This document shows, in pieces, positions 30,534 to 47,269 of a DNA stretch of 48,999 nucleotides. The notes below the pieces were generated by a model. That model worked only from the letters and a program-made list of their open reading frames with translations, did not search any database and had not been told where the DNA came from. The translations under genes and the position numbers were made by a program. Source of the stretch: an uncultured Anaerolineaceae bacterium (GTDB taxonomy: Bacteria; Chloroflexota; Anaerolineae; Anaerolineales; Villigracilaceae); assembly GCA_964500655.1 (NCBI GenBank), contig CAZCPP010000001.1:1-48999 (forward strand), in the 5' to 3' direction. Every line of letters begins with the position of its first letter. The stretch's first letter is position 1.

Positions 30534-30572
30534 AATAAAATAAATCCCCTCCGTCCGTTGGGACGAGAGGGG
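30534..30572 (-). terminator. T-box terminator hairpin
   Basis: Minus-strand RNA reads CCCCUCUCGUCC-CAAC-GGACGGAGGGG followed by AUUUAUUUUAUU. Its 5' arm lies immediately 3' of the T-box sequence and can pair alternatively with it. Confidence 0.85.
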
Positions 30573-30857
30573 ACTCCCGTGGTGCCACCCAAGTTTAGGC
30601 TGCTTTCCCGCTACACGGGTCTTATAAAAAAATCCCTGTTGTGATGCAACAGGGATAAAAAGCCAGCTTCACTCTTTTCAGGTACGTCACATTTTTGTGG
30701 TTATACCCTTGCTCTGTAACGGGAGCACCCGTATTGGGCTAATCGTTGCCTTTCGCCCGCTCAACTCGGAGGTCCATTCGGCTTCTGCGCTTTTGCCTGG
30801 CTCACACCATTTTTGCCTGGCTCTCTGAAAATCGCTTTGAAGCCTACTCGTCCGCGT
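30541..30857 (-). promoter_or_regulatory. T-box riboswitch leader specific for tRNA-Trp, controlling trpEGDCFBA
   Basis: Stem I (30857..30764) has paired segments ACGCGGA/UCCGAGU, GGCUUC/GAAGCC and GCGAUUUU/AAAAGCGC. It also has an AGAGA bulge and a distal loop AAAAAUGGUGUGA. The Specifier loop GAA-UGG-A places the Trp codon UGG at 30776..30774. The F-box CCGUUA lies near 30720. The T-box sequence is AACUUGGGUGGCACCACGG (about 30577..30595). Confidence 0.88.
30626..30656 (-). other. Stem III-position hairpin followed by U7 inside the T-box leader (terminator-shaped)
   Basis: Minus-strand RNA reads AUCCCUGUUG-CAUCA-CAACAGGGAU then UUUUUU: a 10-bp perfect stem about 35 nt 5' of the T-box sequence. 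Confidence 0.6.
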
Positions 30858-30885
30858 CTACGTTTTTGGTAAGTTATTAGCCGCT

Positions 30886-30914
30886 ATTCTATGACAGATA
30901 AGAAAATGTGTCAA
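30886..30914 (-). promoter_or_regulatory. candidate sigma70-type promoter of the trp leader
   Basis: Minus strand reads TTGACA (30914..30909), 17-nt spacer, TAGAAT (30891..30886). The -35 hexamer contains the pheA TGA stop codon. Confidence 0.65.
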
Positions 30915-31723
30915 GCCTTAAATCGCAAATACGACCCAAGCACACGTAGCATGAGTGCATATTCGCCCAGTTGATCAAGTGCAATTTTTTCAGTTCCATC
31001 TTCCATAGCCCCGATGAAATCAATATAAAACAGGTATTCCCAGGGTTTCCCCACCAGCGGGCGCGACTCGATCTTGGTCAGGTCGATATCATGCAGGGCA
31101 AAGGCACTCAAAGCTTTATTGAGCGCTCCGGGTTGGTTTTTGAGAGTAACTACTATTGAGGTTTTGGCTTCACCTTCGGGTACCACTGGCTGCGAAGCGA
31201 TTTCCAGAAAGCGCGTGTAATTCTCCGGGTTATCCTCGATGCCCGTTTGAATTACTTGCATAGCGTATTTCTCAGCTGCCTGTTTCGAAGCAATGGCCGC
31301 TGTTATTCGTTCACCACTTGTTTTGAGCAGCCCGACGCTCCCGGCTGTATCGAAAACCGGTTCAGTTTTTACCCCCAACTTACGCAGAAATCTCGTGCAT
31401 TGACCCAGTGCCTGTGGGTGGCTGATAACGCGTGTGATCTCGGATCGTTCGATGCCTGGAAACCCGATCAGGCAGTGGCGCACGCGTAGAATATATTCGC
31501 CCACAATATGCATATTATGGTACAGCAATAAATCATAATTTTGATGGATGCTACCCGCGAGGGAATTTTCAATCGGGATCAATCCAGACTGACACTCCCC
31601 TGAAGCAACCGCATCAAAAACATCATCAAATGATTCCTTTGGTACCATCTCGACTACACCGAAATACGCGTAACCTGCTTCCTCGCTATAAGCGCCCGGT
31701 TCACCCTGGAAGGCGACTTTCAT
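30911..31723 (-). CDS. pheA: prephenate dehydratase with C-terminal ACT domain
   Basis: 270-aa ORF, MKVAFQGEPGAYSEEA, with TRFL and the ESRP motif (IESRPLVGKPWEYLFYIDF). Confidence 0.93.
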   Translation of the reverse strand: MKVAFQGEPGAYSEEAGYAYFGVVEMVPKESFDDVFDAVASGECQSGLIPIENSLAGSIHQNYDLLLYHNMHIVGEYILRVRHCLIGFPGIERSEITRVISHPQALGQCTRFLRKLGVKTEPVFDTAGSVGLLKTSGERITAAIASKQAAEKYAMQVIQTGIEDNPENYTRFLEIASQPVVPEGEAKTSIVVTLKNQPGALNKALSAFALHDIDLTKIESRPLVGKPWEYLFYIDFIGAMEDGTEKIALDQLGEYALMLRVLGSYLRFKA

Positions 31724-31725
31724 CT

Positions 31726-32940
31726 TTAGTTCCCAACCTGATTATTTGCCCAATCTAAAATCGCACGCATTCCCGCTTCCACATCCGCGTCGGAGGCAGC
31801 GATCGTCAAACGGACAAAACCTTCTCCCTGCGTTCCGAATGCCGACCCGGGGACAAGCCCTACACTTGCCTCATCCAATATTCGCTTGCAGATCTCTATA
31901 GAAGGTAAATCAAATGAGCGGAAATCGAGAAAGAAATAAAAAGCGCCTTGCGGCGATGTCACATGAATGGGTACATTTTCGTATTCACCAACAACACTCA
32001 TTACGATCTCACGGCGGCGGGCGTAAGCAGCGCGCATCTCCGCTGCGGTGGCCTGCACATTTTCATCACTCAAGGCAAAGGCGGCCGCTTTTTGTATGAA
32101 AGGGGCCACACAAGTGATGGAATTTTGCCCGGCCTTCAAGGCATTTTTGATCACCGGCTTTGGTGCAGCCAGGTAGCCAACTCGCCAACCCGTCATTGCA
32201 TAGGTTTTGGACAAGCTGTTGACTAGAATCGTTCTGTCTTTTGCGCCAAGCAATTCGCCAGCCGAAGTTGGTTTTTCACCATAAAACAAATTCCCATAAA
32301 CCTCATCACTGATCACCCACAGGTTATGTTCAGCTGCAAAATCTTGCAACTGCTGGAAGTATTCTCTTGAGGGGTACGCGCCGGTAGGGTTGGAGGGGTA
32401 ATTGAGCACGATGGCGCGGGTTTTGGGTGTCAGCGCGTCATCCCAGGCTTCTACCGGTGGAATGAAGCCATTTTCTGGGGCTGCAGGTATGCGATTCACG
32501 TTGCCCCGTAACATAACAACTATATTAGCATGCGTCGCCCAGGATGGGTAAGGGATGAGTACTTCGTCTCCGGGACTCAAAATGGACTGCATGGCAAGAT
32601 AATAAGCATGCACACCGCCATGTGTCACCAAAATCTCGGATTCAGGATCGTAACTCAAATCATTATCGCACTTCAGTCTAGTGGCGGCAGCAGATCGAAG
32701 GTCCAATAAGCCGCGGCTGGGGCCATAATGAGTTAATCCATCTTGCATGGCTTTGAAAGCCGCCTCGAGCACGGGCGGCGGAGTCGCAAAGTCTGGGTCC
32801 CCCACATGCAATGGAATGATTTGGCGTCCGTTGGTTTTAAGCGCCAGAACACGATCCGCCATTGCAACTGTGGGCGATTGACGGATTTGATCAAATTGCT
32901 GGTTCAGTTCCATTGCGTCCGCGAGGATACCATGAAACAA
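31726..32940 (-). CDS. class I pyridoxal-phosphate aminotransferase (aspartate/aromatic/prephenate type)
   Basis: 404-aa ORF with GDPDF, NYPSNPTG and the PLP-lysine motif SLSKTYAMTGWRVGY. The start is uncertain, either TTG 32940 or ATG 32913. Confidence 0.88.
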   Translation of the reverse strand: MFHGILADAMELNQQFDQIRQSPTVAMADRVLALKTNGRQIIPLHVGDPDFATPPPVLEAAFKAMQDGLTHYGPSRGLLDLRSAAATRLKCDNDLSYDPESEILVTHGGVHAYYLAMQSILSPGDEVLIPYPSWATHANIVVMLRGNVNRIPAAPENGFIPPVEAWDDALTPKTRAIVLNYPSNPTGAYPSREYFQQLQDFAAEHNLWVISDEVYGNLFYGEKPTSAGELLGAKDRTILVNSLSKTYAMTGWRVGYLAAPKPVIKNALKAGQNSITCVAPFIQKAAAFALSDENVQATAAEMRAAYARRREIVMSVVGEYENVPIHVTSPQGAFYFFLDFRSFDLPSIEICKRILDEASVGLVPGSAFGTQGEGFVRLTIAASDADVEAGMRAILDWANNQVGN

Positions 32941-32975: not shown

Positions 32976-33947
32976 TTAATTCACAGAACCGGATATAGGT
33001 TGGGACAAATCGACCGACATCTGTGTGATGTTTACATAATCCAACCAACTTTCGTACTGTGGGTATTTACCATGGATGACAGCATCGAAAGCTTCTTGTA
33101 GCGAGAGAGAGATAGGCCCGGTCTTGCCAGAACTAATCTTGCGAAAGTCTATTTCACTCAACGCAATAATTTCCGCAGCGGTACCACACACAAAAACTTC
33201 ATCGGAGGTATAGAGCATATCTCTAGTTATTGGTTGTTCGAGAACGTCATACCCACGGTCACGAGCAAGTGTGATCAAGGAATTGCGGGTAATGCCCTCC
33301 AAAATAGTGGCAACTGGCGGTGTGTAAATTTTTCCACCCCTTACCAAGAATATATTTTCGCCGGTACATTCTGCTACGTATCCTTGCGGGTCAAGCATGA
33401 TCGCTTCTTCGAAACCTAGCTTAGTTGATTCGGTCTTAGCCAGAGTACTATTAACATAATTTCCGGCGGCTTTTGATTTAGTCATCATAACGTTTACGTG
33501 ATGGCGAGTAAATGAAGATACGTTGGCACGAATACCGTTGCGTCTAGCTTCCTCGCCCAGATAATTCCCCCATTCCCAAACCGCAATACCCAACCCCGAT
33601 TTTGCGCCGATGAAATTCAACCCCATACCTCCTTCAGTCAGATAAACCAAAGGACGGATGTAACATTCAGAAAAACCATTGGCTTTCACAGTCTGCCGGA
33701 TAGCATCAATTACCTGCTCCAGTGTGTAAGGGAGTTCCGGCATATCCAATACACGCGTCGATTCTAACAAGCGTTGGGCATGTTCTTTCAATCGAAAGAC
33801 AGCCGGACCCTTGGGTGTGTCATAACAACGTATTCCCTCAAACACACCCAGGCCATAATGCATAGTGGAAGTCAAAAAATGCACAGTAGCCTTTTCAAAT
33901 TCCACCAGTTCACCATTCATCCAAATATATTTTGATTCCAATGTCAT
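32976..33947 (-). CDS. ilvE: branched-chain amino acid aminotransferase
   Basis: 323-aa ORF of fold-type IV (HYGLGVFEGIRCY, EGITR, GTAAEI). Confidence 0.92.
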   Translation of the reverse strand: MTLESKYIWMNGELVEFEKATVHFLTSTMHYGLGVFEGIRCYDTPKGPAVFRLKEHAQRLLESTRVLDMPELPYTLEQVIDAIRQTVKANGFSECYIRPLVYLTEGGMGLNFIGAKSGLGIAVWEWGNYLGEEARRNGIRANVSSFTRHHVNVMMTKSKAAGNYVNSTLAKTESTKLGFEEAIMLDPQGYVAECTGENIFLVRGGKIYTPPVATILEGITRNSLITLARDRGYDVLEQPITRDMLYTSDEVFVCGTAAEIIALSEIDFRKISSGKTGPISLSLQEAFDAVIHGKYPQYESWLDYVNITQMSVDLSQPISGSVN

Positions 33948-33968
33948 GATAATTTCTCCTTTTCAAAA

Positions 33969-35027
33969 TTACAGAAGCGCGATGATTTCATCTGCCATCT
34001 GTTTAGCACTTAATTTTCCGCCTACATCGACTGTGCGGGCACCATTTGTGATGGCCTCGTCGACAGCTTTTTCAATTGACACTGCTTCAGCTTCCAATTC
34101 CAGCGAGTGTCGCAATAACAATGCAACTGAAAGGATCGTACCAACCGGATTTGCAATCCCCAGACCGGCTATATCCGGGGCGGAACCATGGATCGGTTCA
34201 TACAACCCCAGACTTGATTCCCCTAAACTGGCCGAGGGCAACATCCCCATCGATCCCGCCAACACCGATGCTTCGTCGGTCAGGATATCACCGAACATAT
34301 TTTCGGTGACGACTACATCCATCCATGCCGGACTGGTGATCAGTCGCATCGAAGCCGTGTCCACCAACATATGTTCCAACTCTACATCTGGGTTCTCAGT
34401 GCCAACTTCATTTGCGATCTGTCTCCAAAGGCGAGAGGATTCGAGCACATTGGCTTTATCTACTGAAGTGACTTTGCCTTTGCGCCCCTTTGCCAATTTG
34501 AATGCCAATTCCAACACCCGCCTGACTTCGTAATCGTAATATTCGAGCGTGTCTACCACACGTTCGCGACCATCTTTCACATCGCGGCCTTTAGGCCAGC
34601 CAAAGTACAGGCCGCCCGTCAGTTCGCGGACAACCATAATGTCTACGTCTTCGAGCTTCTCCGCCTTGAGCGGTGACCACTCAATTAGAGCCGGATGCAC
34701 TTTGATCGGGCGTAAATTGGCAAACACGCCCAATCCCTTACGGAGGGCTAACAACCCGCGCTCAGGACGATCTTGGGCGTTGGGATCGTCCCACTTCGGA
34801 CCACCTACCGCGCCCAGCAATATTGCATCTGCAGCCTGACAATCAGCCAAGGTTTCATCAGTCAGCGAGGAGCCGTGTTCATCAATTGAGCGACCGCCCA
34901 TCAGTCGCTCAGTAAAGTTAAAGGAATGTCCGTGTTTGCTAGCAACAGTTTCCAAGACTCGGACAGCTTCGGTCACGATTTCGGGGCCGATGCCGTCACC
35001 AGAGAGTAAAACGATGTTTGCTTTCAT
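33969..35027 (-). CDS. leuB: 3-isopropylmalate dehydrogenase
   Basis: 352-aa ORF with [20 protein letters not shown] and HGSAPDIAG. Confidence 0.94.
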
Positions 35028-35049
35028 AAAATCTCCGCTTGCCCCTCTC

Positions 35050-36609
35050 CTAATGAGCTACGATCAACCCGTATTCAACTGAATCGGCTAAAGCCTGCCA
35101 ACTAGCTTCAATGATATTGGCACTGGCACCAACGGTACTCCAGCGCTTGCTGCCGTTGTGCGTATCGATCAATACGCGCGTGGTAGAGCGAGTACCGTTT
35201 TCACCATCCAAAATTCGAACTTTATAATCCGCCAAATGAAAGGAAGCCAGCTCGGGGAAAATGGGTTGAAGCGCTTTCCGTAAAGCAAGGTCCAAGGCGT
35301 TGACCGGGCCATTTCCTTCTGCAGCTGTGTGCAAGATCTCCCCATTCACTCGAATCTTGACCATGGCCTCTGCGAAAGTACCGCGCCCATCACGATGTTC
35401 TACATTGACAAAAAAATCCACTAACTCAAACGGGGGATTATATTCAGCCTGTTGGCGTTTGAGCATCATCGCCACTGAAGCCTCTGCGGCTTCAAAGGCA
35501 AAACCCTGTGCTTCAAGCTCTTTCACCTCGCCTAGTACTTCAACGACATCCGCCGTATTTTCAACTTCTACGCCGTGCTCTTCAGCCTTGCTCAGTATGT
35601 TGCCACGCCCCGAAAGATCGGAAACGACCACACGCATCTTGTTACCAACCTGTTCCGGCTCGATGTGCTGATAAGACTGGACCGAGCGCCGCATGGCCGC
35701 CACATGCACACCTCCTTTATGCGCAAAAGCAGACTTGCCAACGAAGGGCAAATGCTCGTCAGGCGTGAGGTTGGCAACCTCGGCCACAAAATGTGACAGG
35801 TCGAACAGGCGCGTAAGGTTGCCTTTAGGTAAGCAACTTTTAGCCATTTTTAGTTCGAGATCGGGAATGATCGAGCACAAATTGACGTTGCCACAGCGTT
35901 CGCCAATGCCATTGATTGTGCCCTGCACCTGAAGCGCTCCTTCGCGAACTGCGACTAAGGAGTTGGCGACAGCGCATCCGGAGTCGTTATGGGTGTGGAT
36001 TCCGAAGGGCTGTGCGATAGCAGGCTTGATATCCCGGAGGATGCCTTCCAGCTCCCAGGGCATGGTTCCGCCATTAGTATCGCATAACACAACCGTTTCA
36101 GCGCCTCCACGGATTGCAGCTTGGAGCGTTTCCAGTGCATAGGACGGGTCGGCTTTGTATCCATCGAAGAAATGTTCAGCATCGTAAATCACACGACGCC
36201 CCTGTTCGCGTAGATAAGCGACCGATTGCTCAATAATGCGTAAATTGTCTTCAAGCGTGGTCTGCAACACATCGGTGACATGCAAAATCCAGGTTTTGCC
36301 AAAGACCGTGCAAACAGGTGTGTGTGAATCAATCAGCGCCCTGATGTTGGCGTCGTCTTCAGGGATACCCTTGACCCGGCAAGTAGAGCCAAATGCCGTC
36401 ACAAGCGAGTGCTGCCAATCCATATCGCGGGCGCGCTCGAAGAACTCAACATCCTTGGGGTTCGAGCCAGGCCAGCCGCCTTCGATGAAGGCCACGCCGA
36501 TCCTATCCAGCTGCTTGGCAATGCGTAGTTTATCGTCTCCCGAAAGCGTAAAGCCTTCGGATTGTGTACCGTCTCGCAAGGTGGTGTCATAGATTTGGAT
36601 ACGGGTCAT
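35050..36609 (-). CDS. cimA: (R)-citramalate synthase (LeuA-related, CimA type)
   Basis: 519-aa [17 protein letters not shown] and [16 protein letters not shown] are typical of the citramalate synthase clade as I remember it. It is distinct from the canonical leuA in the same operon. Confidence 0.8.
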
Positions 36610-36623
36610 AAAAATTTCCTTAT

Positions 36624-36664
36624 GTCATTGTGAGGCGGTGTTCTTTCGCCATGGCAATCTCATG
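36624..36664. repeat. short structured intergenic repeat (family B unit)
   Basis: GTCATTGTGAGGCGGTGTTCTTTCGCCATGGCAATCTCATG, with an internal GGCG/CGCC and ATTG/CAAT hairpin. It lies between leuD and cimA. Confidence 0.45.
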
Positions 36665-36685
36665 AAATTTGAGAACTTATTGTTC

Positions 36686-37273
36686 TTAGCCAATTTTGGC
36701 CTCATACTCTGCAATTTCTTTCTCAAAACCCAGAATGTACCCAAGTTCATCTACGCCATATAATAGGCAGGACTTGGAAAAAGGATCAATCGGGAAGGAA
36801 ACCGAGCTTTCGTCTGGCAGCACCACGGACTGCTTTTCCAGGTCAATCTTTATCTTGGCTGTATGAGTTTCTTCGACCAAATCGAAAAGCGACTGGTGCG
36901 TCTCAGCATCCACAATGATTGGCAACAGGCCATTCTTGAGCGCATTGTTGCGGAAGATATCTGCAAAGGAGGTGCTGATGACAGCACGAAAGCCGTAGCC
37001 GGTCAGCGCCCAGGGGGCATGCTCGCGGCTCGAACCACACCCGAAGTTGTCTCCAGCTAACAGGATTTGGGTGCCCTGATATTTTGGATCGTTAACCACG
37101 AAGTCGGGCTTGGGTGTGCCATCCGGTGTATAGCGCCAATCGGCGAACAAGGCATCGCCCATTCCTTGTTTGTCGGTGGCTTTCAAATATCGCGCTGGGA
37201 TGATTTGATCCGTGTCCACATTTTCAACAGGCAGGGGCAACATACGGGAGGTCAGTGTTGTAAATTCAGCCAT
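36686..37273 (-). CDS. leuD: 3-isopropylmalate dehydratase small subunit
   Basis: 195-aa ORF with NVDTDQIIPARYL and GDNFGCGSSREHAPWAL. Confidence 0.94.
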   Translation of the reverse strand: MAEFTTLTSRMLPLPVENVDTDQIIPARYLKATDKQGMGDALFADWRYTPDGTPKPDFVVNDPKYQGTQILLAGDNFGCGSSREHAPWALTGYGFRAVISTSFADIFRNNALKNGLLPIIVDAETHQSLFDLVEETHTAKIKIDLEKQSVVLPDESSVSFPIDPFSKSCLLYGVDELGYILGFEKEIAEYEAKIG

Positions 37274-37287
37274 AAGTTATTCTCAAA

Positions 37288-38686
37288 TTAAAGTAATATA
37301 CGCGGGTCTGATACAGAACCGGTGACGGCGGTTGCCGCTGCTGTAAGAGGGGAGGCTAGAAATGTACGCCCTCCCTTACCCTGACGGCCTTCGAAATTGC
37401 GGTTGCTGGTGCTGAGGGCATATTGCCCGGGCTCGAGTTGGTCACCGTTCATCGCTAGGCACATCGAGCAGCCTGCTTCACGCCAGTCAGCGCCCGCTTC
37501 TTTGAAGACCTTATCAAGGCCTTCGGCTTCGGCTTGCTCCTTGATCTGTTGTGATCCAGGTACCACCATGACTCGCAAGTTATTAGCAACTTTGCGCCCC
37601 TTGAGTAGCGAAGCAGCCTGACGCAAATCCGAAATGCGCGAGTTAGTGCAACTACCGATGAAAACCACGTCTACTTTTTTACCTAGCAACTGTTGCCCGG
37701 GTTGCAAGTCCATGTAAGCCAGTGATTTCTCAAACGCAGCTTTTTGCGATGGGTCTCCATACGAAGTGGGATCAGGAATGCGACTGGTAATTTTCATTCC
37801 CATGCCAGGATTGGTGCCATAGGTGATCATCGGCTCCAACACCGAGGCATCCAGCGTGACGGATTTATCATAAGTCGCACCCTCATCGCCAGGCAGGGAT
37901 TCCCAGAACGCGTGAGATTTATCCCAATCGGCTTCTCGGGGTGCAAACTCACGCCCAGCAAGATATTCGAAGGTGGTTTCATCAGGAGCGATCATGCCTG
38001 CCCTCGCGCCTCCTTCAATGGACATGTTGCAAACCGTCATGCGCTCTTCCATCGAGAGTGAAAGGATCGCTTCGCCAGTGTATTCGAAGACGTGCTCAGT
38101 TCCGCCGCCAACACCAATCTTGGCGATCAATGCCAGGATGACGTCTTTGGCAGTAACGCCTTCCCCAAGTTGCCCGTCCACACGAACTTCATAAGTTTTG
38201 GGCTTATGCTGTAGCAGGCATTGCGTTGCTAGCACATGTTCAACTTCTGATGTGCCAATGCCAAAGGCCAATGCTCCAAACGCGCCATGGGTGGCGGTGT
38301 GGCTATCGCCGCAAACGATGGTCATGCCGGGCTGAGTCAGTCCCAACTCTGGGCCTATGACGTGAACTATGCCACGCTTGGGACTATCGAGCCCAAAGAG
38401 CGAGACATCAAACTCAGTAGCATTGACTTCCATCTGATGGATTTGGGCTGCAGCGACAGGGTCCGCAATCGGTAAGGAGGGGTCATGTGTGGGCGTAGAA
38501 TGGTCCATGGTGGCAAATGTCTTTTCGGGGCGACGAACTTTCAGCCCGCGCTGACGCAGGCCTGTGAAAGCTTGTGGCGATGTCCTCATGGATGAGGTGC
38601 AGGTCAATGTAGAGGACGGCCGGGGAATCAGATTGTTGTGCCACAACGTGTGAGTCCCAGGCTTTTTCGAAGAGCGTCTTTGGCAT
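37288..38686 (-). pseudogene. leuC: 3-isopropylmalate dehydratase large subunit, reading frame broken near 38582..38584
   Basis: The N terminus [15 protein letters not shown]...[10 protein letters not shown] is in one frame (track ORF 38483..38767). The continuation [28 protein letters not shown] is in another frame (track ORF 37288..38646). The total span of 1399 nt is not divisible by 3. Confidence 0.85.
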
Positions 38687-38729
38687 AATGTTTTTCGAAT
38701 TGCGAAGAAAACCTTTTTCCTTGCGTTCT

Positions 38730-38921
38730 TTACGGTAGGAAATTTGTGTAGAAAGCTGTACCGGCATATTCGTCAGTTATTGATGCGGCAGCCCTCTCAG
38801 GTTCAGGCTCCGTATTGAGTCCGCTGAGATCCCAACCAGAGGGCATAGTAACAGGTTCGGGAAATGGATCGAAGATCGGAGTTCGAGCAGCGTCTTTATT
38901 ATCATCTGGGGTTGTAAACAT
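38730..38921 (-). CDS. hypothetical acidic proline-rich 63-aa protein
   Basis: The ATG at 38921 is preceded by the strongest SD I noticed in the operon (AAAGGAGAAATCACC-ATG), 26 nt after the leuA stop. Translation: [64 protein letters not shown] do not recognise a family. Confidence 0.5.
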
Positions 38922-38947
38922 GGTGATTTCTCCTTTTGGGGAATTAA

Positions 38948-40612
38948 TTATCCAACCAGCATGACACCGTAATCAGTCTGGACGGTTTGCGCGCCTTCAG
39001 TTTGCGAGATTATGAGTTTGTTAAGGGCGTTGATATAGGCTTTGGCGCTGGCAACGATAATGTCTGTATCAGCACCATGACCGCCGTAAATTCGATTGAC
39101 AGGCATCTCTTTCTGAGCATCCATAGTTTGGTGACCATTGTCGCCCTGTACGCGCACGGTTACTTCACCTAATGCATCAATGCCTTCAGTGATGGCGTGA
39201 ATATTGAATTCAAGTAGTGTATTGGGAGTGTTGACAATAGTATTGATGGCTTTGTAGGTGGCATCCACAGGGCCGGTGCCGATGGCGGCCTCGGTATGGA
39301 TTTCCCTATCCGGGCCCTTCAAGCGCACTGTGGCGGTGGGCATGCCCATCGTCCCGCAAGCGACCTGCAAACCATCCAGCGAGTAGACCGAGAGCGGTTG
39401 GTAAAACTCGTCGGCGATCAGAGCTTCGAGATCCGCGTTGGTGATGACCTTTTTGCGATCGGCCAATTCCTTGAAGCGGGTAAATGCCTGGTCGAGTTCG
39501 GCCTCGTCCAGTGCATGGCCCAATTCTGCCAAGCGGGCGCGTAAGGCGTGACGGCCTGAATGCTTACCTAGCACCAGCCTGGTCTCATTAACGCCAACGT
39601 CTTCGGGGCGCATAATCTCGTAGGTGGACTGATTTTTAAGCATACCGTCCTGATGGATACCAGCCTCGTGCGCAAATGCATTAGCCCCCACAATGGCTTT
39701 ATTTGGTTGCACGTTGATACCGGTGTAATTGCTGACCAATTTGCTGACGCGTGAAAGCTGGGTGCTATCGATGCCCGTCTCCAGTTTGTACACCGGGTGG
39801 CGGGTTTTGAGCGCCATGACAACTTCCTCCAGTGAAGTGTTACCCGCCCGTTCGCCAATCCCGTTGATGGTCACTTCGGCCTGACGCGCGCCCGCTCGGA
39901 TGCCCGTCATGGCATTGGCAGTAGCCATTCCCAGGTCATCATGGGTGTGCACAGAAATGGTGATCTCTTCGCTCATACCAGGTGTATTCGCTAGGATTCC
40001 CGATATCAGTGCTCCGAATTCTTCCGGCATTGTGTAACCCACCGTGTCGGGGATGTTGAGCGTGGTCCCGCCAGCTTCGATAGCAACCCCCAGCACTTGG
40101 TACAGGAATTCCGGGTCAGAGCGACCGGCATCTTCCGGACTGAACTCCACATCAGCGCACAGCGCTCGCGCATAGGCCACCATCTCACGAACCTTTTCCA
40201 GCACCTGTTCGCGCGTCATCTTGAGCTTGTGCTGCATGTGAATCTCAGAGGTAGCCAAAAAGGTGTGAATGCGGGGCTTCTGCGCTCCTTTTACTGCTTC
40301 CCAGGCCTTATCGATATCGCCCCGAGTAGCGCGTGCCAGCCCGCATATGACCGGGACATTAACTTGCTCCTCACCCTTCGACGTGCTCAGGACGACGCCC
40401 TCTGGCGGATTCCCAACCTCGTCCGCGATGCGGCGCACGGCTTCCAGGTCATCGGGCGAGGCAGCCGGAAAACCCGCTTCGATAATATCCACACCCAGGC
40501 GAGCCAGGTTGCGCGCAACTTCCAATTTCTCAGTGGAAGTCATTGTTGCGCCAGGGGATTGTTCGCCGTCTCTTAATGTGGTGTCGAATATTTTGACGTA
40601 GTTACTAATCAT
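38948..40612 (-). CDS. leuA: 2-isopropylmalate synthase (long form with C-terminal regulatory domain)
   Basis: [26 protein letters not shown] and a LeuA dimerisation/regulatory tail are present. Start taken at ATG 40612 (GGAG 6 nt upstream) rather than the TTG at 40624. Confidence 0.93.
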
Positions 40613-40629
40613 AGAATGCTCCAATTCCC

Positions 40630-41691
40630 TTATTTACCGTTACTCTTCCAGTTCTCAGGTCGCAACGAGCGCACAGCCGCGCCCGCTTGCCACATCTCGG
40701 AATCGCGCATAATTTTCAGTTCTGCGGCCAAGTTTTCTCGGTAGTTCGGATCGCTGTTTTTCTCGAGCACTACACGGGTCTCTTTACCCTCCACCACGCT
40801 CTTGTACAGTTCATCAAACAGGGGCATGACAGCATCTCGGAAACGCGGATGCCAATCCAACGCACCGCGCTGGGCAGTGGTGGAGCAGTTGGCATACATC
40901 CAGTCCATGCCGTTCTCGGCAACCAGGCGGATGAGCGACTGCGTCAGCTCTTCAACGGTCTCATTGAAGGCTTCGCTGGGGCTGTGACCGTATTTCCGCA
41001 GCGTGTTGTATTGCGCTTCCATCACGCCAGAAAGTGCGCCAATCAGGATGCCGCGTTCGCCGGTCAGGTCGCTATAGACTTCGTTCTTAAATGTGGTGGG
41101 AAACAGATAACCTGCCCCAATCGCAATACCGAGCGCCAGCGTGCGCTCTTCGGCGCGACCTGTTTTATCTTGATGAACGGCATAACTGGCGTTGATGCCA
41201 GAGCCATCTAGGAAATTGCGGCGTACGCTGGTGCCAGAGCCTTTGGGCGCGACCAAAGCCACGTCCACGTGCGGGGGCGGGATCACGCCAGTCTGCTCGG
41301 TATAGGTGATCGAAAAACCATGCGAGAAATACAGCATGTCGCCTTCGTTCAAGGTTTCAACGATCTTCGGCCATTGCGAGCGTTGACCCGCATCCGATAA
41401 CAGATACTGGATAACCGTGCCGCGTTCGGCGGCTTCTTCGACCGTGAAGAGAGTTTCACCGGGAACCCAGCTATCTGATACAGCTTTATCCCAGTTCGAG
41501 GTACCCTGGCGCTGCCCCACAATAACATTGACGCCGTTATCACGCATGTTCAGCGCCTGGGCTGGGCCCTGCAGGCCGTAACCGAGCACGGCTACGACTT
41601 CATCTTTGAGTACTTCGCGCGCTTTTTCAAGCGGGAACTCTTCGCGGGTGACGACCGTTTCGACCACACCGCCAAAATTGATTTCAGCCAT
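40630..41691 (-). CDS. ilvC: ketol-acid reductoisomerase (class I)
   Basis: 353-aa ORF with [19 protein letters not shown] and a C-terminal knotted-domain motif. Confidence 0.94.
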
Positions 41692-41712
41692 AAGATAATT
41701 TCTCCTTTTGCC

Positions 41713-42270
41713 TTAGTCCGCGACCATAACGGCGACTTCTTCCGGATGCCAGCCATTACCATTAGCACCCGCTGTACGGCGGATTCCGCAATGCTCACCG
41801 CGGGTCATGGCTACCTGGCCAGTACGCACCATCTCGACGATGCCGATCGGGCGAAGCAATTCAATCATGCCCTCAATTTTGTCTTCGGTGCCGGTGGCTT
41901 CCACGATAACGGAATCAGGCGCAACGTCCACGATGCGGGCGCGGAAGATGGTCGCCAGATCTTTTACATTGCTGCGTTGATCCGGCGTGGCTTTGACTTT
42001 GATCAGCGCCAAGTCGCGGGTCACAGATGGTTGGCGCGTGACGTCCTGTACGTCCAGCACATTTACCAGTTTGTACAGGTTGGCCTCGATTTTGTGCGCA
42101 TCCGTATCATTTTCGCATTCGGTCACAATCGTCATGCGCGAAACTTGCAGATCTTCTGTTTTCCCGACCGCTAACGAATCGATGTTGAATTTCCGGCGGC
42201 GGAACAACGAAGCCACCCGGTTGAGCACACCGGGTTTATTTTCAACTAAGGCGATAAATGTATATTGCAT
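41713..42270 (-). CDS. ilvN: acetolactate synthase small (regulatory) subunit
   Basis: 185-aa ORF with the ACT domain LVENKPGVLNRVASLFRRRKFNIDSL. Confidence 0.92.
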   Translation of the reverse strand: MQYTFIALVENKPGVLNRVASLFRRRKFNIDSLAVGKTEDLQVSRMTIVTECENDTDAHKIEANLYKLVNVLDVQDVTRQPSVTRDLALIKVKATPDQRSNVKDLATIFRARIVDVAPDSVIVEATGTEDKIEGMIELLRPIGIVEMVRTGQVAMTRGEHCGIRRTAGANGNGWHPEEVAVMVAD

Positions 42271-42296
42271 ATGATTTCTCCATATCTCCTATTATT

Positions 42297-43988
42297 TCAG
42301 GCGGGATCCTTTTCTGGTCTGCGCAGCATCTGATCCAGTGCCGCTCCGGCCGGCACCATCGGATAGACAGCTTCCTCTTTCTCCACGCGGAATTCCAGTA
42401 AAACCGGGCCGGGCGTGCACCGTGCGAATCGGATCGCATCCTGAACCTGGTCGGGGCTGGTCACCCGCCGGGCAGGGACACCGTGCGCTTCGGCGATCTT
42501 GACGAAATCAGGACCTGTGATGTTGACTGCCGAATAACGTTTTTCGAAGAAGAATTCCTGCCACTGGCGCACCATGCCCAAAAAGTTGTTATTCATAATG
42601 GCGATCTTGACGTTTGCGCCTTCCTGAATCACGGTGGTGAGTTCCGCCTGGGTCATCTGGAAGCCGCCATCACCGACAACCGTCCAGATCTCCTCATCCG
42701 GGCGCGCAAACCAGGCACCGATAGCGGCCGGCAGACCAAAACCCATCGTCCCCGCACCACCGGAGGTAAGCCAGCGCTTGGGTTTATCCATGAAATAATA
42801 TTGCGCCGTCCACATCTGATGCTGACCGACGTCGGTAGTCACGATCGCGCCGCCCTCGGTTGCGCGCCATAGCTCGTGTACCAGGTGCGAGACGTGCAAC
42901 TTGCCGTCATCCGGCCAACTCAGGATGTCCCGGGTTTCCACATCGGCTTTCCATTCTCCGATTTGCTCTAACCAATCTTCATGTTCGTATTCATCCACCA
43001 GCGGGACCAACTCGGTCAATACCGTTTTCAAATCACCTACCAGGGGGACATCGACCTGCACAATTTTGTGAATTTCCGAGGGGTCAATGTCGATGTGAAT
43101 TTTCTTTGCACCACGCGCATAGGTGTTGAGCGTACCCGTGACACGATCATCAAAGCGCATACCAAAGGCCAGCAGCAGGTCGGCGTTCTGGATGGCCTGG
43201 TTGCAGTGCGCTTCACCGTGCATCCCCATCATGCCCAGGCTGAGTTCGTGCGAGGCCGGGAAGGCCCCTAAACCAAGCAAGGTCATCGCGACCGGGGTTT
43301 GGGTTTTGATCGCAAAATGCGCTAAAGCTTCCTCGCCTCCCGATATCAAGATCCCATGTCCGCACAAAATAACCGGACGCTGGGCCTGGGAAATCAGGTC
43401 AGCGGCTTTCTCCAGGCCAGCTTTGGGCGCATGGGTAGGGGGTTTGTATCCCGGCAACTTCACTTCTCCGGGGTAGGCAAACTCTGCCCACTCGATCTGG
43501 GCGCTCTTGCAGATGTCGATCAGGACCGGGCCTGGGCGTCCACTACGGGCGATGTAAAAGGCCTCGGTGATAACTTCAGCGATTTCATCGGCGCTGGTCA
43601 CCAGGTAGTTATGCTTGGTGATCGGCAACGTGATGCCGGTCACGTCTGTTTCCTGAAAGGCGTCTCCCCCCAGCAGGCTGGAGGCCACCTGCCCGGTGAT
43701 GCATACGATCGGGGAGGAGTCCATCATGGCTGTGATGATCCCGGTCACCAGATTGGTCGCGCCTGGGCCGGAAGTAGCCATGACCACACCCACTTTGCCA
43801 GAAGCACGCGCATAACCATCCGCCATATGAGACGCGCCCTGCTCATGCCGCACCAGTACGTGATGTACCGGGTAATTGAGCATGGCATCATAGATCGGCA
43901 TGTTGGCCCCGCCTGGGTAGCCAAAGACAACTTCCACGCCCTCGCGCGTCAGACATTCCCACAAAATCTCTGCTCCTGTCTTTTTCAT
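42297..43988 (-). CDS. ilvB: acetolactate synthase large subunit
   Basis: 563-aa ORF with ThDP enzyme motifs (GYPGGANMPIYDA, GGAGTMGFGLPAAIGA, GDGGFQM). Confidence 0.95.
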   Translation of the reverse strand: MKKTGAEILWECLTREGVEVVFGYPGGANMPIYDAMLNYPVHHVLVRHEQGASHMADGYARASGKVGVVMATSGPGATNLVTGIITAMMDSSPIVCITGQVASSLLGGDAFQETDVTGITLPITKHNYLVTSADEIAEVITEAFYIARSGRPGPVLIDICKSAQIEWAEFAYPGEVKLPGYKPPTHAPKAGLEKAADLISQAQRPVILCGHGILISGGEEALAHFAIKTQTPVAMTLLGLGAFPASHELSLGMMGMHGEAHCNQAIQNADLLLAFGMRFDDRVTGTLNTYARGAKKIHIDIDPSEIHKIVQVDVPLVGDLKTVLTELVPLVDEYEHEDWLEQIGEWKADVETRDILSWPDDGKLHVSHLVHELWRATEGGAIVTTDVGQHQMWTAQYYFMDKPKRWLTSGGAGTMGFGLPAAIGAWFARPDEEIWTVVGDGGFQMTQAELTTVIQEGANVKIAIMNNNFLGMVRQWQEFFFEKRYSAVNITGPDFVKIAEAHGVPARRVTSPDQVQDAIRFARCTPGPVLLEFRVEKEEAVYPMVPAGAALDQMLRRPEKDPA

Positions 43989-44004
43989 TCTCTTCTCCTT
44001 ATTT

Positions 44005-44067
44005 CACCCCTCGCCCTTCCTGTCCCCTGCGGGAATGCTTCGCAAGGAGAGGGGTCGGGGGTGAGGG
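44005..44067. repeat. GC-rich palindromic repeat (family A, CCCTCACCC / GGGAGAGGGG / GGGGTGAGGG type)
   Basis: CACCCCTCGCCCTTCCT...AGGAGAGGGGTCGGGGGTGAGGG forms a long imperfect hairpin and fills the ilvD-ilvB gap. It has no U-tract, so it is not a terminator. Confidence 0.65.
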
Positions 44068-45741
44068 TTAATATTCAGTTGATAACACTGCACCTGTATC
44101 TGCAGAGGTCACAAAATATGAATATCGTTTGAGCCACTTGCTTTTGATCGTAGACTGGAAGGGAGGCAACTCGCTCAATCGTTGACTTAATTCCGCCTCG
44201 CTCAAGCGCACCTCGAGCCTGCGGGCCGTTAAATCGATATCGATCATGTCTCCAGCCTGGAGGGCGCCAACCGAGCCGCCAGCAGCCGCTTCCGGTGAGA
44301 CATGACCGATGCAGGCACCGCGCGTCCCGCCGCTAAAACGGCCGTCGGTGATCAGGGCCACCTTGTCGCCCAGTCCCTGCCCCATGATGGCAGAAGTCGG
44401 CGAAAGCATTTCCTGCATTCCAGGCCCACCTTTGGGCCCCTCATAGCGGATGACGACCACTTCCCCGGCCTGGACATCACCGGCTAGGATGCCGGCTAAG
44501 GCCTCATCTTGCGATTCGTAGATACGCGCCGGGCCGCTGAACTTCATCATCTCTGGACCCACGCCACCCACCTTGACGACTGCACCATCCGGCGCCAGGT
44601 TTCCAAATAAAATCGCCAGGCCACCGTGTTTCGAATGTGCGTTTTCATACCGTTGAATAACGTCTTTAGCTTGAATTTCCCGCCCTTGAATGGATTCCCC
44701 TAGCGTGCTGCCGCTGACCGTTGGACGCTCGAAGTGCAGCATGCCGCCCCCGCGTTGGATCTCGTTCAGAATGGCCGGGACACCACCCGCGCGGTGCACA
44801 TCTTCCATGTGCCATTTCCCCGCCGGCGAGACCTTGCAAATGTGCGCGACTTTATCGGCCACGGCATTGATGCGCGCGAGTGGATAATCCACCTGCGCTT
44901 CGTTAGCTAGCGCCAGCGTGTGCAGCACGGTGTTGGTCGAGCCACCCATGGCCATATCCAGCGCGAAGGCATCGTCTATCGCTTCAGCGGTGACGATGTC
45001 ACGCGGTTTGAGGTCGCGTTCCAGCAGGGTCATGATCTGCCCGGCGGCCTGCAATGCCAATGTTTCCCGTTCTTCCGTCTCCGCCAGGGCGGTGCCGTTG
45101 AAAGGCAACGCCAGGCCTAGGGCTTCCATCAGGCAGTTCATCGAATTTGCGGTGAACATACCCGAGCACGATCCGCAAGAAGGGCAGGCGAATTTCTCTA
45201 AAACGGATAGGCGTTCTGCGTCGATTTTCCCGGCTGAATAGGCGCCCACACCCTCGAAAACCGAGATCAGGTCGATGGTTTCTCCCTCGGGGGTGCGCCC
45301 GGCCGGCATCGGTCCGCCGGAGACGAAAATCGTGGGGATGTTAACTCGCATGGCGGCCAGCAACATGCCCGGGACGATCTTGTCGCAGTTGGGGATGCAA
45401 AGCATGGCGTCAAACCTGTGAGCCTCGAGCATGGTTTCCACGCAGTCAGCAATCAGTTCGCGGGAAGGAAGCGAGTACTTCATCCCCCTATGTCCCATGG
45501 CGATACCGTCATCCACGCCGATGGTGTTGAATTCGAAGGGTACCCCGCCCGCAGCGCGTACCGCGTCTTTGATCAGTTTTCCGAATTCCTGCAGGTGCAC
45601 GTGCCCGGGGACAACATCTACATACGAGTTGACGATTGCCACGAAGGGCTTGTTGAAATCTTCGTCCTGCAAGCCGGTAGCACGCAGCAAGGCACGTTGG
45701 GGGGCTTTCTCGAAACCTTTCTTGACAGTATCAGATCGCAT
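44068..45741 (-). CDS. ilvD: dihydroxy-acid dehydratase
   Basis: Start taken at ATG 45741 ([19 protein letters not shown]), giving 557 aa. It has the CDK(I/N)xPG-type motif [11 protein letters not shown] and a Cys cluster. The upstream 23 codons of the track ORF translate a repeat element. Confidence 0.94.
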
Positions 45742-45756
45742 AATTCCTATCTTCTT

Positions 45757-45796
45757 CTCCCTCTCCCTCTGGGAGAGGGAAGGGGTGAGGGTGGGG
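45757..45796. repeat. partial family A GC-rich repeat in the ilvD 5' UTR
   Basis: It contains CCCTCTCCC-TCT-GGGAGAGGG followed by AAGGGGTGAGGGTGGGG. The same core is found at 44005..44067 and 47133..47199. Confidence 0.6.
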
Positions 45797-45830
45797 TAAA
45801 AAAGAGCCACCCTTTGCCTGGGTGGCTCTC
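45797..45830 (-). terminator. intrinsic terminator of the proximal ilv attenuator
   Basis: Minus-strand RNA reads AGAGCCACCC-AGGCAAA-GGGUGGCUCU then UUUUU (10-bp stem). It begins about 23 nt after the stop of the proximal leader ORF. Confidence 0.85.
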
Positions 45831-45852
45831 ATCTTTTTGGGTATGTGCCTTT

Positions 45853-45960
45853 TTATGTGTCACTATCCCGGATTAGTGCAACCTCAAGCGCGCTCTCCTG
45901 TGTAAGCAGGAGGACGATAATCAGGATAATGACGATGTTTATGCTGTGGTACAGATGCAT
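45853..45960 (-). CDS. Ile/Leu/Val-rich leader peptide, proximal (35 aa)
   Basis: ATG at 45960 with AAGGAA 8 nt upstream. Translation MHLYHSINIVIILIIVLLLTQESALEVALIRDSDT, with 12 of the 13 codons 7-19 being Ile, Leu or Val. It is followed by the terminator at 45797..45830. Confidence 0.7.
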   Translation of the reverse strand: MHLYHSINIVIILIIVLLLTQESALEVALIRDSDT

Positions 45961-45978
45961 ATCGGGCTTCCTTGAGTA

Positions 45979-46009
45979 ACAAAAAAGCCGCCCGTGGTTG
46001 GGCGGCTTT
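45979..46009 (-). terminator. intrinsic terminator of the distal ilv attenuator
   Basis: Minus-strand RNA reads AAGCCGCCC-AACCAC-GGGCGGCUU then UUUUUG, about 25 nt after the stop of the distal leader ORF. Confidence 0.85.
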
Positions 46010-46033
46010 ACCTTTTTGCGCAGATGTGTGCGA

Positions 46034-46135
46034 TTATTTCACGCTCACCTTTGCCATCCCAACCACAAACTGGTCCTTAATAATAAGGACCAAAATAATA
46101 ATGCTAAGAACCAGGGTTGAGAAAGCTGTCTGCAT
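46034..46135 (-). CDS. Ile/Leu/Val-rich leader peptide, distal (33 aa)
   Basis: ATG at 46135, TAA at 46036..46034. Translation MQTAFSTLVLSIIILVLIIKDQFVVGMAKVSVK, with 11 of the 12 codons 8-19 being Ile, Leu or Val. It lies about 19 nt downstream of the predicted transcription start. Confidence 0.72.
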   Translation of the reverse strand: MQTAFSTLVLSIIILVLIIKDQFVVGMAKVSVK

Positions 46136-46160
46136 GACTCAGTTGTACCTATTTCGCCCG

Positions 46161-46188
46161 ATTATAGGCCCTTTTGAGATTATGTCAA
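46161..46188 (-). promoter_or_regulatory. consensus sigma70-type promoter of the ilv-leu leader
   Basis: Minus strand reads TTGACA (46188..46183), 16-nt spacer, TATAAT (46166..46161). Both hexamers are perfect consensus. Confidence 0.7.
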
Positions 46189-46278
46189 GGGTAAATTGGA
46201 AATTGGTATAAAAATATGTCAGATATCATCCCTGATAACTTCGTTGGGAGTGCCTAATTCCGATGACAAAAGATATAT

Positions 46279-46446
46279 GTCACCTTGAGAGAAGCGAAGG
46301 GTCTCCCGCGCTTCGCGCGGAGATTCTCACCTGCACTTGCAGCGCAGGCGCAAGTGTCACTCCCCCGTTTCGGGCCGACGCCCTCTCGGGGCGGACGGCC
46401 TGCGGTCATTCACCTGTGCCTGCGGCACTGGCGCGGGCAGAATGAC
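46279..46446. repeat. composite GC-rich structured repeat cluster (family B-like termini GTCACCTTGAGAGAAGCGAAGGGTCTC ... GCAGAATGAC)
   Basis: It contains several hairpins (TCTCCCGCGC/GCGCGGAGA, CACTTGC/GCAAGTG, GCCGACGCCC/GGGGCGGACGGC). It also has a ~28-nt imperfect direct repeat TCACCTGnnCnTGCnGCnCnGGCGC. It lies in the divergent intergenic region. Confidence 0.5.
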
Positions 46447-46495
46447 AAAATGTTTTCTAGTTTAGGCACTCCCACATCGTGTCCCGCAACTTCAG

Positions 46496-46504
46496 TGCTA
46501 AAAT
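46496..46504 (+). promoter_or_regulatory. candidate extended -10 promoter giving a leaderless DUF1638 mRNA
   Basis: TGCTAAAAT (TGn + TAAAAT) ends 6 nt before the ATG at 46511. There is no SD and no good -35. Confidence 0.3.
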
Positions 46505-46510
46505 ACGGAC

Positions 46511-47269
46511 ATGGATTCCCCCCCATCCCTGCCCGTCGTGGTTATGGCCTGCCGCGTATTTCAAAACTGGCTCGAGCACATGATCCCCTCTGAATTGACC
46601 GAGGACATCACCTTCTTCGATTATGCTCTGCACGAAGTGCCCAACAAGTTGCGAGAGACCGTACAAGCCACGCTGGACAGTATCGAAGAGCCCAGCCTGA
46701 TCGTGCTGGGCTATGGACTGTGTGGCAACGGTTTACATGAGATTCAAGCTGGAAAGCATACCCTGCTGATCCCGCGCACGGACGATTGCATCGCCATCAT
46801 CCTGGGCTCGTATGCGGCTTACCGGCGTGAGTTCGATAAAGAGCCGGCCACTTATTATCTCTCCAAAGGCTGGCTGGAAGGCGGTAGCACACCGCTGGCT
46901 GAATATAAAAAATATATCGATAAATACGGGCAGAAAAAGGGCGAGTGGCTTATGGATTACCAGTACCGCAATTATAAACGCCTGGCGCTGATCGTGCAAA
47001 ACCAGGCCGATCTGGAGAAATATCGCCCGGCCGCCAAAGAGGTGGCGCGCTATTGCGAACGTTGGGGCTTTAGATATGAGGAGTTGATCGGTTCGGATAC
47101 CCTGCTGCGGCGTTTAGTCGAAATTGCTGCATCCCCTCACCCGTCTTCCGCTTTGCTACAGACCCCCTCTCCCAGTGGGAGAGGGGCTGGGGGTGAGGGA
47201 GAAAATGATACTGATTTTATTATTATTCCTCCAGGCGGACAGTTGACCCAGGATTTGTTTTTACGCTGA
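46511..47269 (+). CDS. DUF1638-like protein with a repeat-derived low-complexity insert
   Basis: 252-aa ORF. ACRVF, LGYGLCGNG, LLIPRTDDCIAIILGS and YYLSKGW resemble the DUF1638 family as I recall it. The C-terminal part holds SPHPSSALLQTPSPSGRGAGGEGE, encoded by a family A repeat. Confidence 0.75.
   Translation: MDSPPSLPVVVMACRVFQNWLEHMIPSELTEDITFFDYALHEVPNKLRETVQATLDSIEEPSLIVLGYGLCGNGLHEIQAGKHTLLIPRTDDCIAIILGSYAAYRREFDKEPATYYLSKGWLEGGSTPLAEYKKYIDKYGQKKGEWLMDYQYRNYKRLALIVQNQADLEKYRPAAKEVARYCERWGFRYEELIGSDTLLRRLVEIAASPHPSSALLQTPSPSGRGAGGEGENDTDFIIIPPGGQLTQDLFLR
47133..47199. repeat. family A GC-rich palindromic repeat located inside the DUF1638 coding sequence
   Basis: CCCCTCACCC...CCCCCTCTCCC-AGT-GGGAGAGGGG-CTG-GGGGTGAGGG has nested inverted repeats identical in core to those at 44005..44067 and 45757..45796. 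Confidence 0.7.

Follow-up and report, generated by a model that had tools for sequence, protein, structure and literature searches.

We examined the DNA upstream of ilvD in a 48,999-nucleotide (nt) stretch from an uncultured Anaerolineaceae bacterium (contig CAZCPP010000001.1); this whole stretch, referred to below as the window, served as the reference. With its ATG at 45741 (minus strand), ilvD opens a string of branched-chain amino acid (BCAA) genes: ilvD, ilvB, ilvN, ilvC, leuA, a small open reading frame (ORF), leuC, leuD, cimA, leuB and ilvE (32976..45741, minus strand; identified by NCBIfam equivalog matches and Pfam). The subject of this report is the leader of this ilv-leu operon, all elements of which lie on the minus strand. 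It begins with a sigma-70-type promoter, TTGACA-16 nt-TATAAT (46161..46188; -35 element at 46188..46183, -10 element at 46166..46161), which matches the consensus at 12 of 12 positions and was the top promoter-like site within the 5 kb scanned. Between this promoter and ilvD we found two consecutive units, each made of a short upstream ORF (uORF) that is rich in isoleucine, leucine and valine (I/L/V) codons and a hairpin followed by a U run, just as the original prediction had described them.

In unit 1, the ATG of uORF1 (46034..46135) lies 25 nt from the end of the -10 element, and the ORF encodes a leader peptide of 33 amino acids (aa), MQTAFSTLVLSIIILVLIIKDQFVVGMAKVSVK, with homologous uORFs of 32-35 aa in relatives. 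Its presumed regulatory run occupies codons 8-19 (L V L S I I I L V L I I, LVLSIIILVLII; 46079..46114), of which 11 of 12 are I/L/V. Segment 1 (CUCAACCC; 46114..46121) is a candidate anti-antiterminator that pairs with GGUUGGG of segment 2 in minimum-energy folds. Segment 2 itself (GUUUGUGGUUGGGAUGGC; codons 22-28; 46053..46070) is the putative antiterminator 5' strand and pairs with GCCGCCCAACCAC, and a further hairpin, H, is formed within uORF1 by codons 15-22 (UUGGUCCUUAUUAUUAAGGACCAG; 46070..46093; -13.7 kcal/mol). The unit ends in terminator 1 (segments 3 and 4; AAAGCCGCCC-AACCAC-GGGCGGCUUU plus U run; 45978..46009; -18.6 kcal/mol), whose stem of 10 base pairs (bp), 7 of them GC, spans 46009..45984 and is followed by U6.

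The 23-nt gap between the units holds no second promoter, so uORF2 would be reached solely by read-through of terminator 1. A Shine-Dalgarno sequence, AAGGAAG (45967..45973), precedes uORF2 (45853..45960), which encodes a 35-aa peptide, MHLYHSINIVIILIIVLLLTQESALEVALIRDSDT. In this unit, the regulatory run spans codons 7-19 (I N I V I I L I I V L L L, INIVIILIIVLLL; 45904..45942) and is I/L/V at 12 of 13 positions; its codons 10-15 double as segment 1 of unit 2. Translation of the two uORFs thus confirmed the I/L/V counts given earlier for both runs. The candidate antiterminator 5' strand (GCUUGAGGUUGCACUAAUC; 45871..45889) forms a mismatch-interrupted pairing with GAUGAGAGCCACCCAGGC. Terminator 2 (GAGAGCCACCC-AGGCAAA-GGGUGGCUCUU plus U run; 45796..45830; -20.5 kcal/mol) has an 11-bp stem (45830..45802), again followed by U6.

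Both uORFs stand out within the window. When all 425 ATG-initiated ORFs of 15-60 aa on both strands were ranked by I/L/V density, uORF1 and uORF2 took ranks 1 and 2 (11/12 each), and three short ORFs reached at least 10/12 I/L/V, compared to a mean of 0.07 in 30 dinucleotide shuffles. The RNA is also more strongly folded than shuffled sequence, with z-scores of -4.0 and -4.1 for the two units and -6.3 for the whole leader. The short ORF at rank 3 (25531..25581, minus strand) is Leu-dominated, lies inside a long ORF (24728..25969) and is most likely an out-of-frame artefact.

We then compared the leader with ~150 ilvD loci that had sufficient upstream DNA, consisting of a first set of 80 loci and additional metagenome loci (individual loci are designated L002 to L124 below); nearly all of them have a leader of this kind. 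The closest ilvD genes (73-89% identity) all belong to Anaerolineales and other Anaerolineae (Chloroflexota), which agrees with the earlier suggestion of a Chloroflexota-like genome, and the ilvD-bearing relatives include Candidatus Villigracilis, Bellilinea, Leptolinea, Flexilinea and Brevefilum; in Bellilinea caldifistulae GOMI-1 (L071) the leader consists of a single unit. Conservation of I/L/V-rich uORFs and terminators upstream of ilvD had been set beforehand as the test of the attenuator proposal. We found it in the first 80 loci, 78 of which carry complete leaders of the same design (the L002 sequence stops after the ORF end and the terminator; no leader is present in L061), and most metagenome loci with enough upstream DNA, whose ilvD identity to the window was at most 89%, carry the leader too. 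The leaders share a uORF of 32-35 aa (consensus M..SLSLIVVVLAVLIIKDQF.V(R/G)MA.V..K) and, a median of 22 nt past its stop, a terminator with GCCGCCC(U)AACCAC as its 5' arm and loop. A promoter of the form TTGACN-(16-17 nt)-TANAAT was present no more than 80 nt from the first uORF in 60/79 related loci, and the start region CGGGCGAAA is conserved. Because the 510-nt leader region was identical across five independently assembled metagenome contigs, the leader is not an assembly artefact; those contigs that carry exactly this uORF2 peptide matched the window at 100% identity and provided no further variation. Two loci deserve separate mention. L061, on a contig labelled Terriglobia, has a closely related ilvD with no leader ORF or terminator upstream, and may reflect mis-binning or leader loss; L080 has a uORF and a strong hairpin that lacks a U run, followed by ~150 nt with more inverted repeats.

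The amino-acid composition of the run is narrow. In the best 12-residue window over 85 distinct leader peptides, 86% of residues were L, I or V (L 35%, I 26%, V 25%), with F at 0.7% and M and W absent; the run is therefore not merely hydrophobic. Conservation within the run depends on codon position (0.76 at position 1, 0.92 at position 2, which is the U of NUN codons, and 0.80 at position 3), whereas the ORF tail is conserved evenly (0.85, 0.79 and 0.82), as would be expected if the tail were constrained as RNA. This period-3 pattern and the I/L/V specificity point to decoding of the run by ribosomes. In the window, the two units have nearly equal L/I/V proportions (0.35/0.31/0.19 and 0.34/0.34/0.19) and no marked rare-codon bias, and we therefore rejected the idea that they are specialised for different amino acids.

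Evidence for a switch comes from the tail of uORF1. The stretch GUGGUUGGG-A-UGGC (codons 24-28) can base-pair with GCCG-CCCAACCAC, which forms the 5' arm and loop of terminator 1, and the resulting antiterminator of 13 bp with one bulge has a predicted energy of -23.6 kcal/mol (z = -4.7; matched by 0/1000 shuffles); the fold of the whole leader shows this alternative pairing as well. In a sequence-only alignment of unit 1 from 54 relatives, the antiterminator helix was paired in 85% of cells with four pairs changed on both sides, and the terminator 1 helix in 97% of cells with five such pairs. Hairpin H, possibly an RNA polymerase pause or spacing element, was paired in 82% of cells with both-side changes at 5/9 pairs. 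The covariation score of the whole structure (antiterminator plus hairpin H) was reached by 0/500 shuffles, and sliding the helix partners cut pairing to 25-56%. RNAalifold, used as an unbiased consensus fold on the unit 1 alignment, returned the terminator as its sole helix.

Column covariation of the antiterminator was partly blurred by MAFFT gap placement (CCC-AAC versus CCCTAAC), such that a true A-U/G-C exchange at columns 123/210 was counted as mismatches. For this reason we added an alignment-free test, in which the duplex of each ORF tail with its own terminator arm was compared with the duplexes it forms with arms of other loci. Own duplexes averaged -19.1 kcal/mol and foreign ones -15.3 kcal/mol, with 0/10,000 permutations as good, and the advantage persisted with 58 distinct terminator cores. 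Compensatory changes tie GUGG of the ORF to CCAC of the terminator loop, and segment 2 of the window (GGUUGGG, facing CCCAACC in the terminator arm and loop) becomes GGUUAGG facing CCUAACC in the main clade. The corresponding motifs are GCGG and CCGA in L013, CAGG and CCUA in L050, GGGG and UCCC in L055, and CGGG and CCCA in L043. In distant groups the peptide itself (VVGMA, VWAV or AWAA) shifts in step with the terminator arm. Thus the tail of the ORF and the terminator's 5' arm and loop have evolved together, the mark of an antiterminator.

Based on these findings, we regard it as likely that the region is an ilv-leu operon leader with two homologous ribosome-mediated BCAA attenuators in series, as originally predicted; conservation and covariation among relatives support that proposal, with unit 2 the less certain of the two. 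RNA polymerase starting from the single promoter would transcribe, in each unit, a short ORF with a run of 12-13 Ile/Leu/Val codons in its middle. When charged Ile-, Leu- or Val-tRNA is scarce, a ribosome would stall in the run and, because the run ends four codons before segment 2, would leave this G-rich segment free. Segment 2 could then pair with the emerging 5' arm and loop of the terminator, no terminator would form and transcription would go on. When all three amino acids are plentiful, the ribosome would cover segment 2 on its way to the stop codon, or segment 2 would stay paired to upstream codons; in either case the terminator hairpin and its U run would form and transcription would end. 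Since unit 2 can be reached only by read-through of unit 1, the two read-through probabilities should multiply, which should cut basal expression and sharpen the response. Sequence analysis itself shows which parts the leader has and that they are conserved, that the run is constrained at the level of codons, and that tail and terminator coevolve; we infer that ribosomes stall, when they do so, that amino-acid supply is sensed and that the two read-through steps multiply.

We modelled the switch by placing a 28-nt ribosome footprint at each codon. In an equilibrium version, applied to the full-length unit RNA, the probability of terminator 1 was 0.94 with no ribosome present, dropped to 0.001-0.3 when codons 6-13 occupied the A site, and returned to ~0.95 from codon 15 to the stop; the predicted switch of the window's unit 1 runs through segment 1 (CUCAACCC), which otherwise holds segment 2 (-22.2 kcal/mol for the segment 1:2 structure). 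A nascent-RNA version asked whether the 5' arm of the terminator is already sequestered before its 3' arm exists. Here, the arm was sequestered as long as the A site lay within the I/L/V run and became free over the next ~11 codons, a pattern common among unit-1-type leaders and also found in 9/11 unit 2 leaders. The geometry in these models is as the mechanism predicts, a ribosome stalled in the run permitting the antiterminator and a proceeding ribosome preventing it. The four-codon spacer between run and segment 2 (KDQF in unit 1 and TQES in unit 2) has the length expected from the leading edge of a ribosome that has stalled. Unit 1 makes a convincing case and is likely a BCAA-responsive leader-peptide attenuator.

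Several observations weigh against this interpretation. The equilibrium model keeps the terminator at every ribosome position in many relatives as well as in the window's unit 2, so that the case leans on kinetic, co-transcriptional reasoning; since the outcome of attenuation is settled while the RNA is still being made, we considered the equilibrium test overly strict and used the nascent-RNA model instead. Column by column, relatives do not conserve the window's segment 1:2 pairing (54.5% of cells paired), and segment 2 was paired with real upstream sequence about as often as with shuffled sequence (0.74 versus 0.76). An anti-antiterminator step is therefore suggested only for the window, its family-wide pairing being no higher than in the shuffled control. 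Furthermore, segment 2 ends ~16 nt before the stop codon, and a ribosome parked at the stop may for this reason not fully mask it. No clear Shine-Dalgarno sequence was recognisable upstream of uORF1 and its 5' untranslated region measures only ~19 nt, which means that translation of uORF1 is assumed. Finally, a look-alike leader of Streptomyces ilvB is reported not to have behaved like a classical attenuator upon codon mutation (PMC1262725), which calls for caution here.

The tandem layout of the window is conserved in its closest clade: the loci with two units are L023, L033, L054, L082, L083, L085, L086, L087, L095, L100 and L120, and a distinct second tandem group consists of L065, L077 and L124. 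Orthologues of uORF2 were recognised in L023, L033, L054, L082, L085, L086, L087, L095, L100 and L120. The Shine-Dalgarno sequence of uORF2 is likewise kept in the second units of relatives, as AAGGAA in L082, L083, L085, L086, L087 and L100 and as AAGGTA in L120. Within the window, the two units are paralogues with 116/200 aligned positions identical, and they most likely sense the same signal twice. In the window clade, unit 1 is nearest to other unit 1s and unit 2 to other unit 2s (identity 0.7-0.9, versus ~0.6 between partners), as expected after one old duplication. The two units of each L065-group locus, by contrast, have their nearest match in one another, which indicates a second duplication or concerted evolution, and the tandem apparently arose twice. 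A second unit can also degenerate, as seen in L037, where positions 2746-3003, between unit 1 and ilvD, hold a decayed copy whose frame (..LISFAIILIAPLLLTQERILVVGMAG*) has no start codon and whose terminator is weakened.

The evidence for unit 2 of the window is more divided, and the points against regulation concern its antiterminator and terminator. Its energy (-14.6 to -16.6 kcal/mol; z = -1.3 to -1.5) was equalled by 8-11% of shuffles, so that on its own it is weak and indistinguishable from chance, and in the equilibrium model the probability of terminator 2 stayed at 0.92-0.97 at every ribosome position. These two results, together with the decayed second unit of L037, would fit a situation in which only unit 1 is regulated and the window's unit 2 is a decaying copy, a constitutive or weakly regulated partial terminator that damps expression. 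Yet the uORF2 of the clade retains its start codon, its Shine-Dalgarno sequence, a 12/13 I/L/V run and a conserved segment 1:2 helix of ~15-16 bp between I/L/V codons (GUCAUUAUCCUGAUU) and GGUCAGGAUAGUGAC; in the window this helix pairs GUCAUUAUCCUGAUUA with UAAUCCGGGAUAGUGAC (45875..45859), and the whole structure has an energy of -29.3 kcal/mol. In a small hairpin, the CCUCCUUCUU/AAGGAGAG arms of relatives correspond to CCUCCUGCUU/CAGGAGAG in the window, a compensatory change. The nascent-RNA model gave the expected on/off profile for unit 2 of the window, and strong unit 2 antiterminators were present in L120, L054 and L086. Across the unit 2 family, own antiterminator pairings beat permuted ones (-16.3 versus -14.7 kcal/mol; 54/10,000 permutations as good), which we take as moderate family-level support, and classical antiterminators are usually weaker than their own terminators. 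We thus consider the decaying copy unlikely and lean modestly towards a window unit 2 that is regulated as well, albeit one that may work less efficiently.

The proposal of two attenuators also has to be set against the possibility that the ORFs encode stable small hydrophobic peptides, membrane or toxin-like, and that the hairpins are either plain terminators or RNA structure with no link to the sensing of amino acids. Each peptide does have a hydrophobic stretch of ~13-17 residues with a charged tail, peptide length is held at 32-35 aa, and there is a faint, sub-cut-off Pfam match to YpmT (E = 0.048). Against this, the run consists almost entirely of L, I and V and all but excludes F, M, W and G, which sets it apart from membrane helices, and the peptides match no protein family. 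In the ~150 loci, the leaders were recovered at a single location, directly upstream of ilvD, the search having covered only ilvD loci. The ORF tail and the terminator loop coevolve at the level of RNA. In addition, a 1-nt insertion in the window's uORF2 has changed the peptide tail from VRIVT to IRDSDT and kept the RNA pairing, which disfavours a conserved peptide function. A stable peptide product is, on this evidence, very improbable. Less likely still is conditional termination with a trans-acting factor as the sensor, be it an RNA-binding protein or, as in T-boxes, uncharged tRNA. The T-box that precedes trpE in the same genome and the lack of a Shine-Dalgarno sequence at uORF1 would suit such a sensor, but the ilv leader matches neither a T-box nor another Rfam family even at E ≤ 10, the period-3 conservation and I/L/V specificity indicate decoding by ribosomes, and the distance from run to segment 2, conserved at four codons, agrees with a ribosome footprint.

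A covariance search of the window against Rfam 15, its Thr and Trp leaders included, gave no ilv-leader match at gathering score. The best sub-threshold matches, Phe_leader (RF01859; 27 bits, gathering 55), His_leader (RF00514; 17.8 bits, gathering 49) and Leu_leader (RF00512; 16 bits, gathering 50, on the wrong strand), rest on the terminator. No T-box (RF00230) signal was found in 45600..46600, even at E ≤ 10, and this negative is credible because the same search mode finds a Trp T-box upstream of trpE. Profile-HMM searches of the peptides against NCBIfam likewise returned no match at E ≤ 10, in Pfam they match only YpmT, and public gene calls list uORF2 solely as an unnamed protein.

The Trp T-box is an observation in its own right. 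It occupies 30556..30869 (minus strand), upstream of trpE (29050..30492), with 88.4 bits and E = 6e-20 for RF00230; its specifier position aligns to GAA-UGG-A, and a promoter, TTGACA-17-TAGAAT, lies at 30914..30886. It falls just under the gathering score of 93 because of a 59-nt insertion with a terminator-like hairpin (30656..30632), and standard Rfam annotation would overlook it. A Trp leader peptide at this position was considered and rejected, the element being a T-box. On the sequence evidence, then, trp is governed by a T-box in this genome and ilv-leu by leader peptides.

The proposed attenuators resemble the E. coli and Salmonella leaders of ilvGMEDA (ilvL), ilvBN (ivbL) and leu (leuL) in that an ORF rich in the end product (mixed I/L/V, as in ilvL) is combined with mutually exclusive antiterminator and terminator, a single promoter and BCAA genes. 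They differ in showing no sequence or covariance-model similarity to those leaders, in their occurrence in Chloroflexota, in the arrangement of two serial units, and in the antiterminator 5' strand, which here lies wholly inside the coding region, four codons past the run. It was originally proposed that leader-peptide attenuation is documented mainly in Proteobacteria and some Actinobacteria. For BCAA operons it is not confined to these groups, as ilv-leu or leuA attenuator peptides have also been described in Firmicutes, namely S. aureus (PMC5794164), Listeria (PMC5864092) and Streptococcus (PMC5314783), in addition to the ilvB and ilvBNC leaders of Actinobacteria (Corynebacterium, Mycobacterium and Streptomyces; PMC1262725, PMC10272879, PMC11857589). 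Occurrence in a new phylum is thus less surprising than first implied. Like the window leader, these combine an I/L/V- or Leu-rich uORF with a terminator, reaching the same principle beyond Proteobacteria by independent sequence evolution; unlike it, they are single units and unrelated in sequence.

Two serial cis regulators whose outputs combine are also known from the Salmonella mgtCBR leader (mgtM and mgtP; PMC3641672) and from tandem riboswitches and T-boxes (PMC12452182). The two short ORFs of mgtCBR are non-homologous and respond to different signals (PMC3641672), whereas the units described here are paralogues with the same I/L/V composition. Our literature searches turned up no tandem leader peptides for the same signal. 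Nor did we find a description of leader-peptide attenuation in Chloroflexi or Anaerolineae in searchable full text, with the proviso that Lopatovskaya et al. 2010 (PMID 20198868) may cover other phyla. One paper considered Chloroflexi genomes too few to judge (PMC4833913), and a broad survey used Rfam families only (PMC3766115).

By comparison of sequences, the leaders form an uncatalogued family, in a new phylum, of a well-known mechanism, and their conserved serial duplication is the most interesting feature. Current understanding is not overturned by the finding; it extends classical ribosome-stalling attenuation to Anaerolineae, a large, mostly uncultured group in which regulation is almost unstudied. 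The ~150 aligned examples are ready for RNA and leader-peptide catalogues, and current annotation overlooks the family entirely. The joint evolution of coding sequence and terminator loop offers a clean natural case of dual coding and RNA constraint. Conserved serial paralogues of the same specificity provide a simple system for asking whether serial attenuators multiply dynamic range and, if they do, this would be a design principle for synthetic biology. A broader reading, which we hold tentatively and rate at slightly below even, is that of a lineage-specific Anaerolineae family of BCAA attenuators with the antiterminator strand inside the ORF, serially duplicated at least twice independently and long kept. 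If true, this would imply selection for two ribosome-stalling sensors of the same signal that act multiplicatively, with lower basal expression and a steeper response. It would also be a natural counterpart of tandem riboswitches, for which we found no precedent among amino-acid leader peptides.

Downstream, the gene content proposed earlier for the operon (ilvDBNC-leuACD-cimA-leuB-ilvE) was recovered in full, and its proposed length of 15 kb was not: ilvD through ilvE spans 12.8 kb, and 15 kb is reached only with two further genes. Directly after ilvE on the same strand (30911..32940), these encode a class I/II aminotransferase (404 aa) and an ACT-domain prephenate dehydratase (270 aa), and the attenuated transcript may hence also carry a phenylalanine-pathway gene. 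We found no strong internal minus-strand terminator within the gene string, and from this and the gene order we infer that the whole string is probably a single transcript. The small ORF (63 aa, ~38729..38920, minus strand) fills the 300-nt gap between leuA and leuC and has a good Shine-Dalgarno sequence, AAAGGAG; the true start of leuC is probably the ATG at 38685 and not the listed TTG.

Immediately upstream of the ilv promoter lies a GC-rich stretch of ~200 nt with several short inverted repeats (~46250..46450), and beyond it a divergent DUF1638 gene (46511..47269). On the other side of the leader, a perfect GC-rich hairpin, UCCCUCUCCC-AGA-GGGAGAGGGA (45758..45780, minus strand), follows terminator 2 and closely precedes the Shine-Dalgarno sequence of ilvD. 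Similar hairpins, of the CCCUCUCCC/GGGAGAGGG type, occupy the equivalent position in L082, L086, L042, L100 and L023, and they may represent a dispersed repeat family or an element that stabilises the mRNA or modulates translation.

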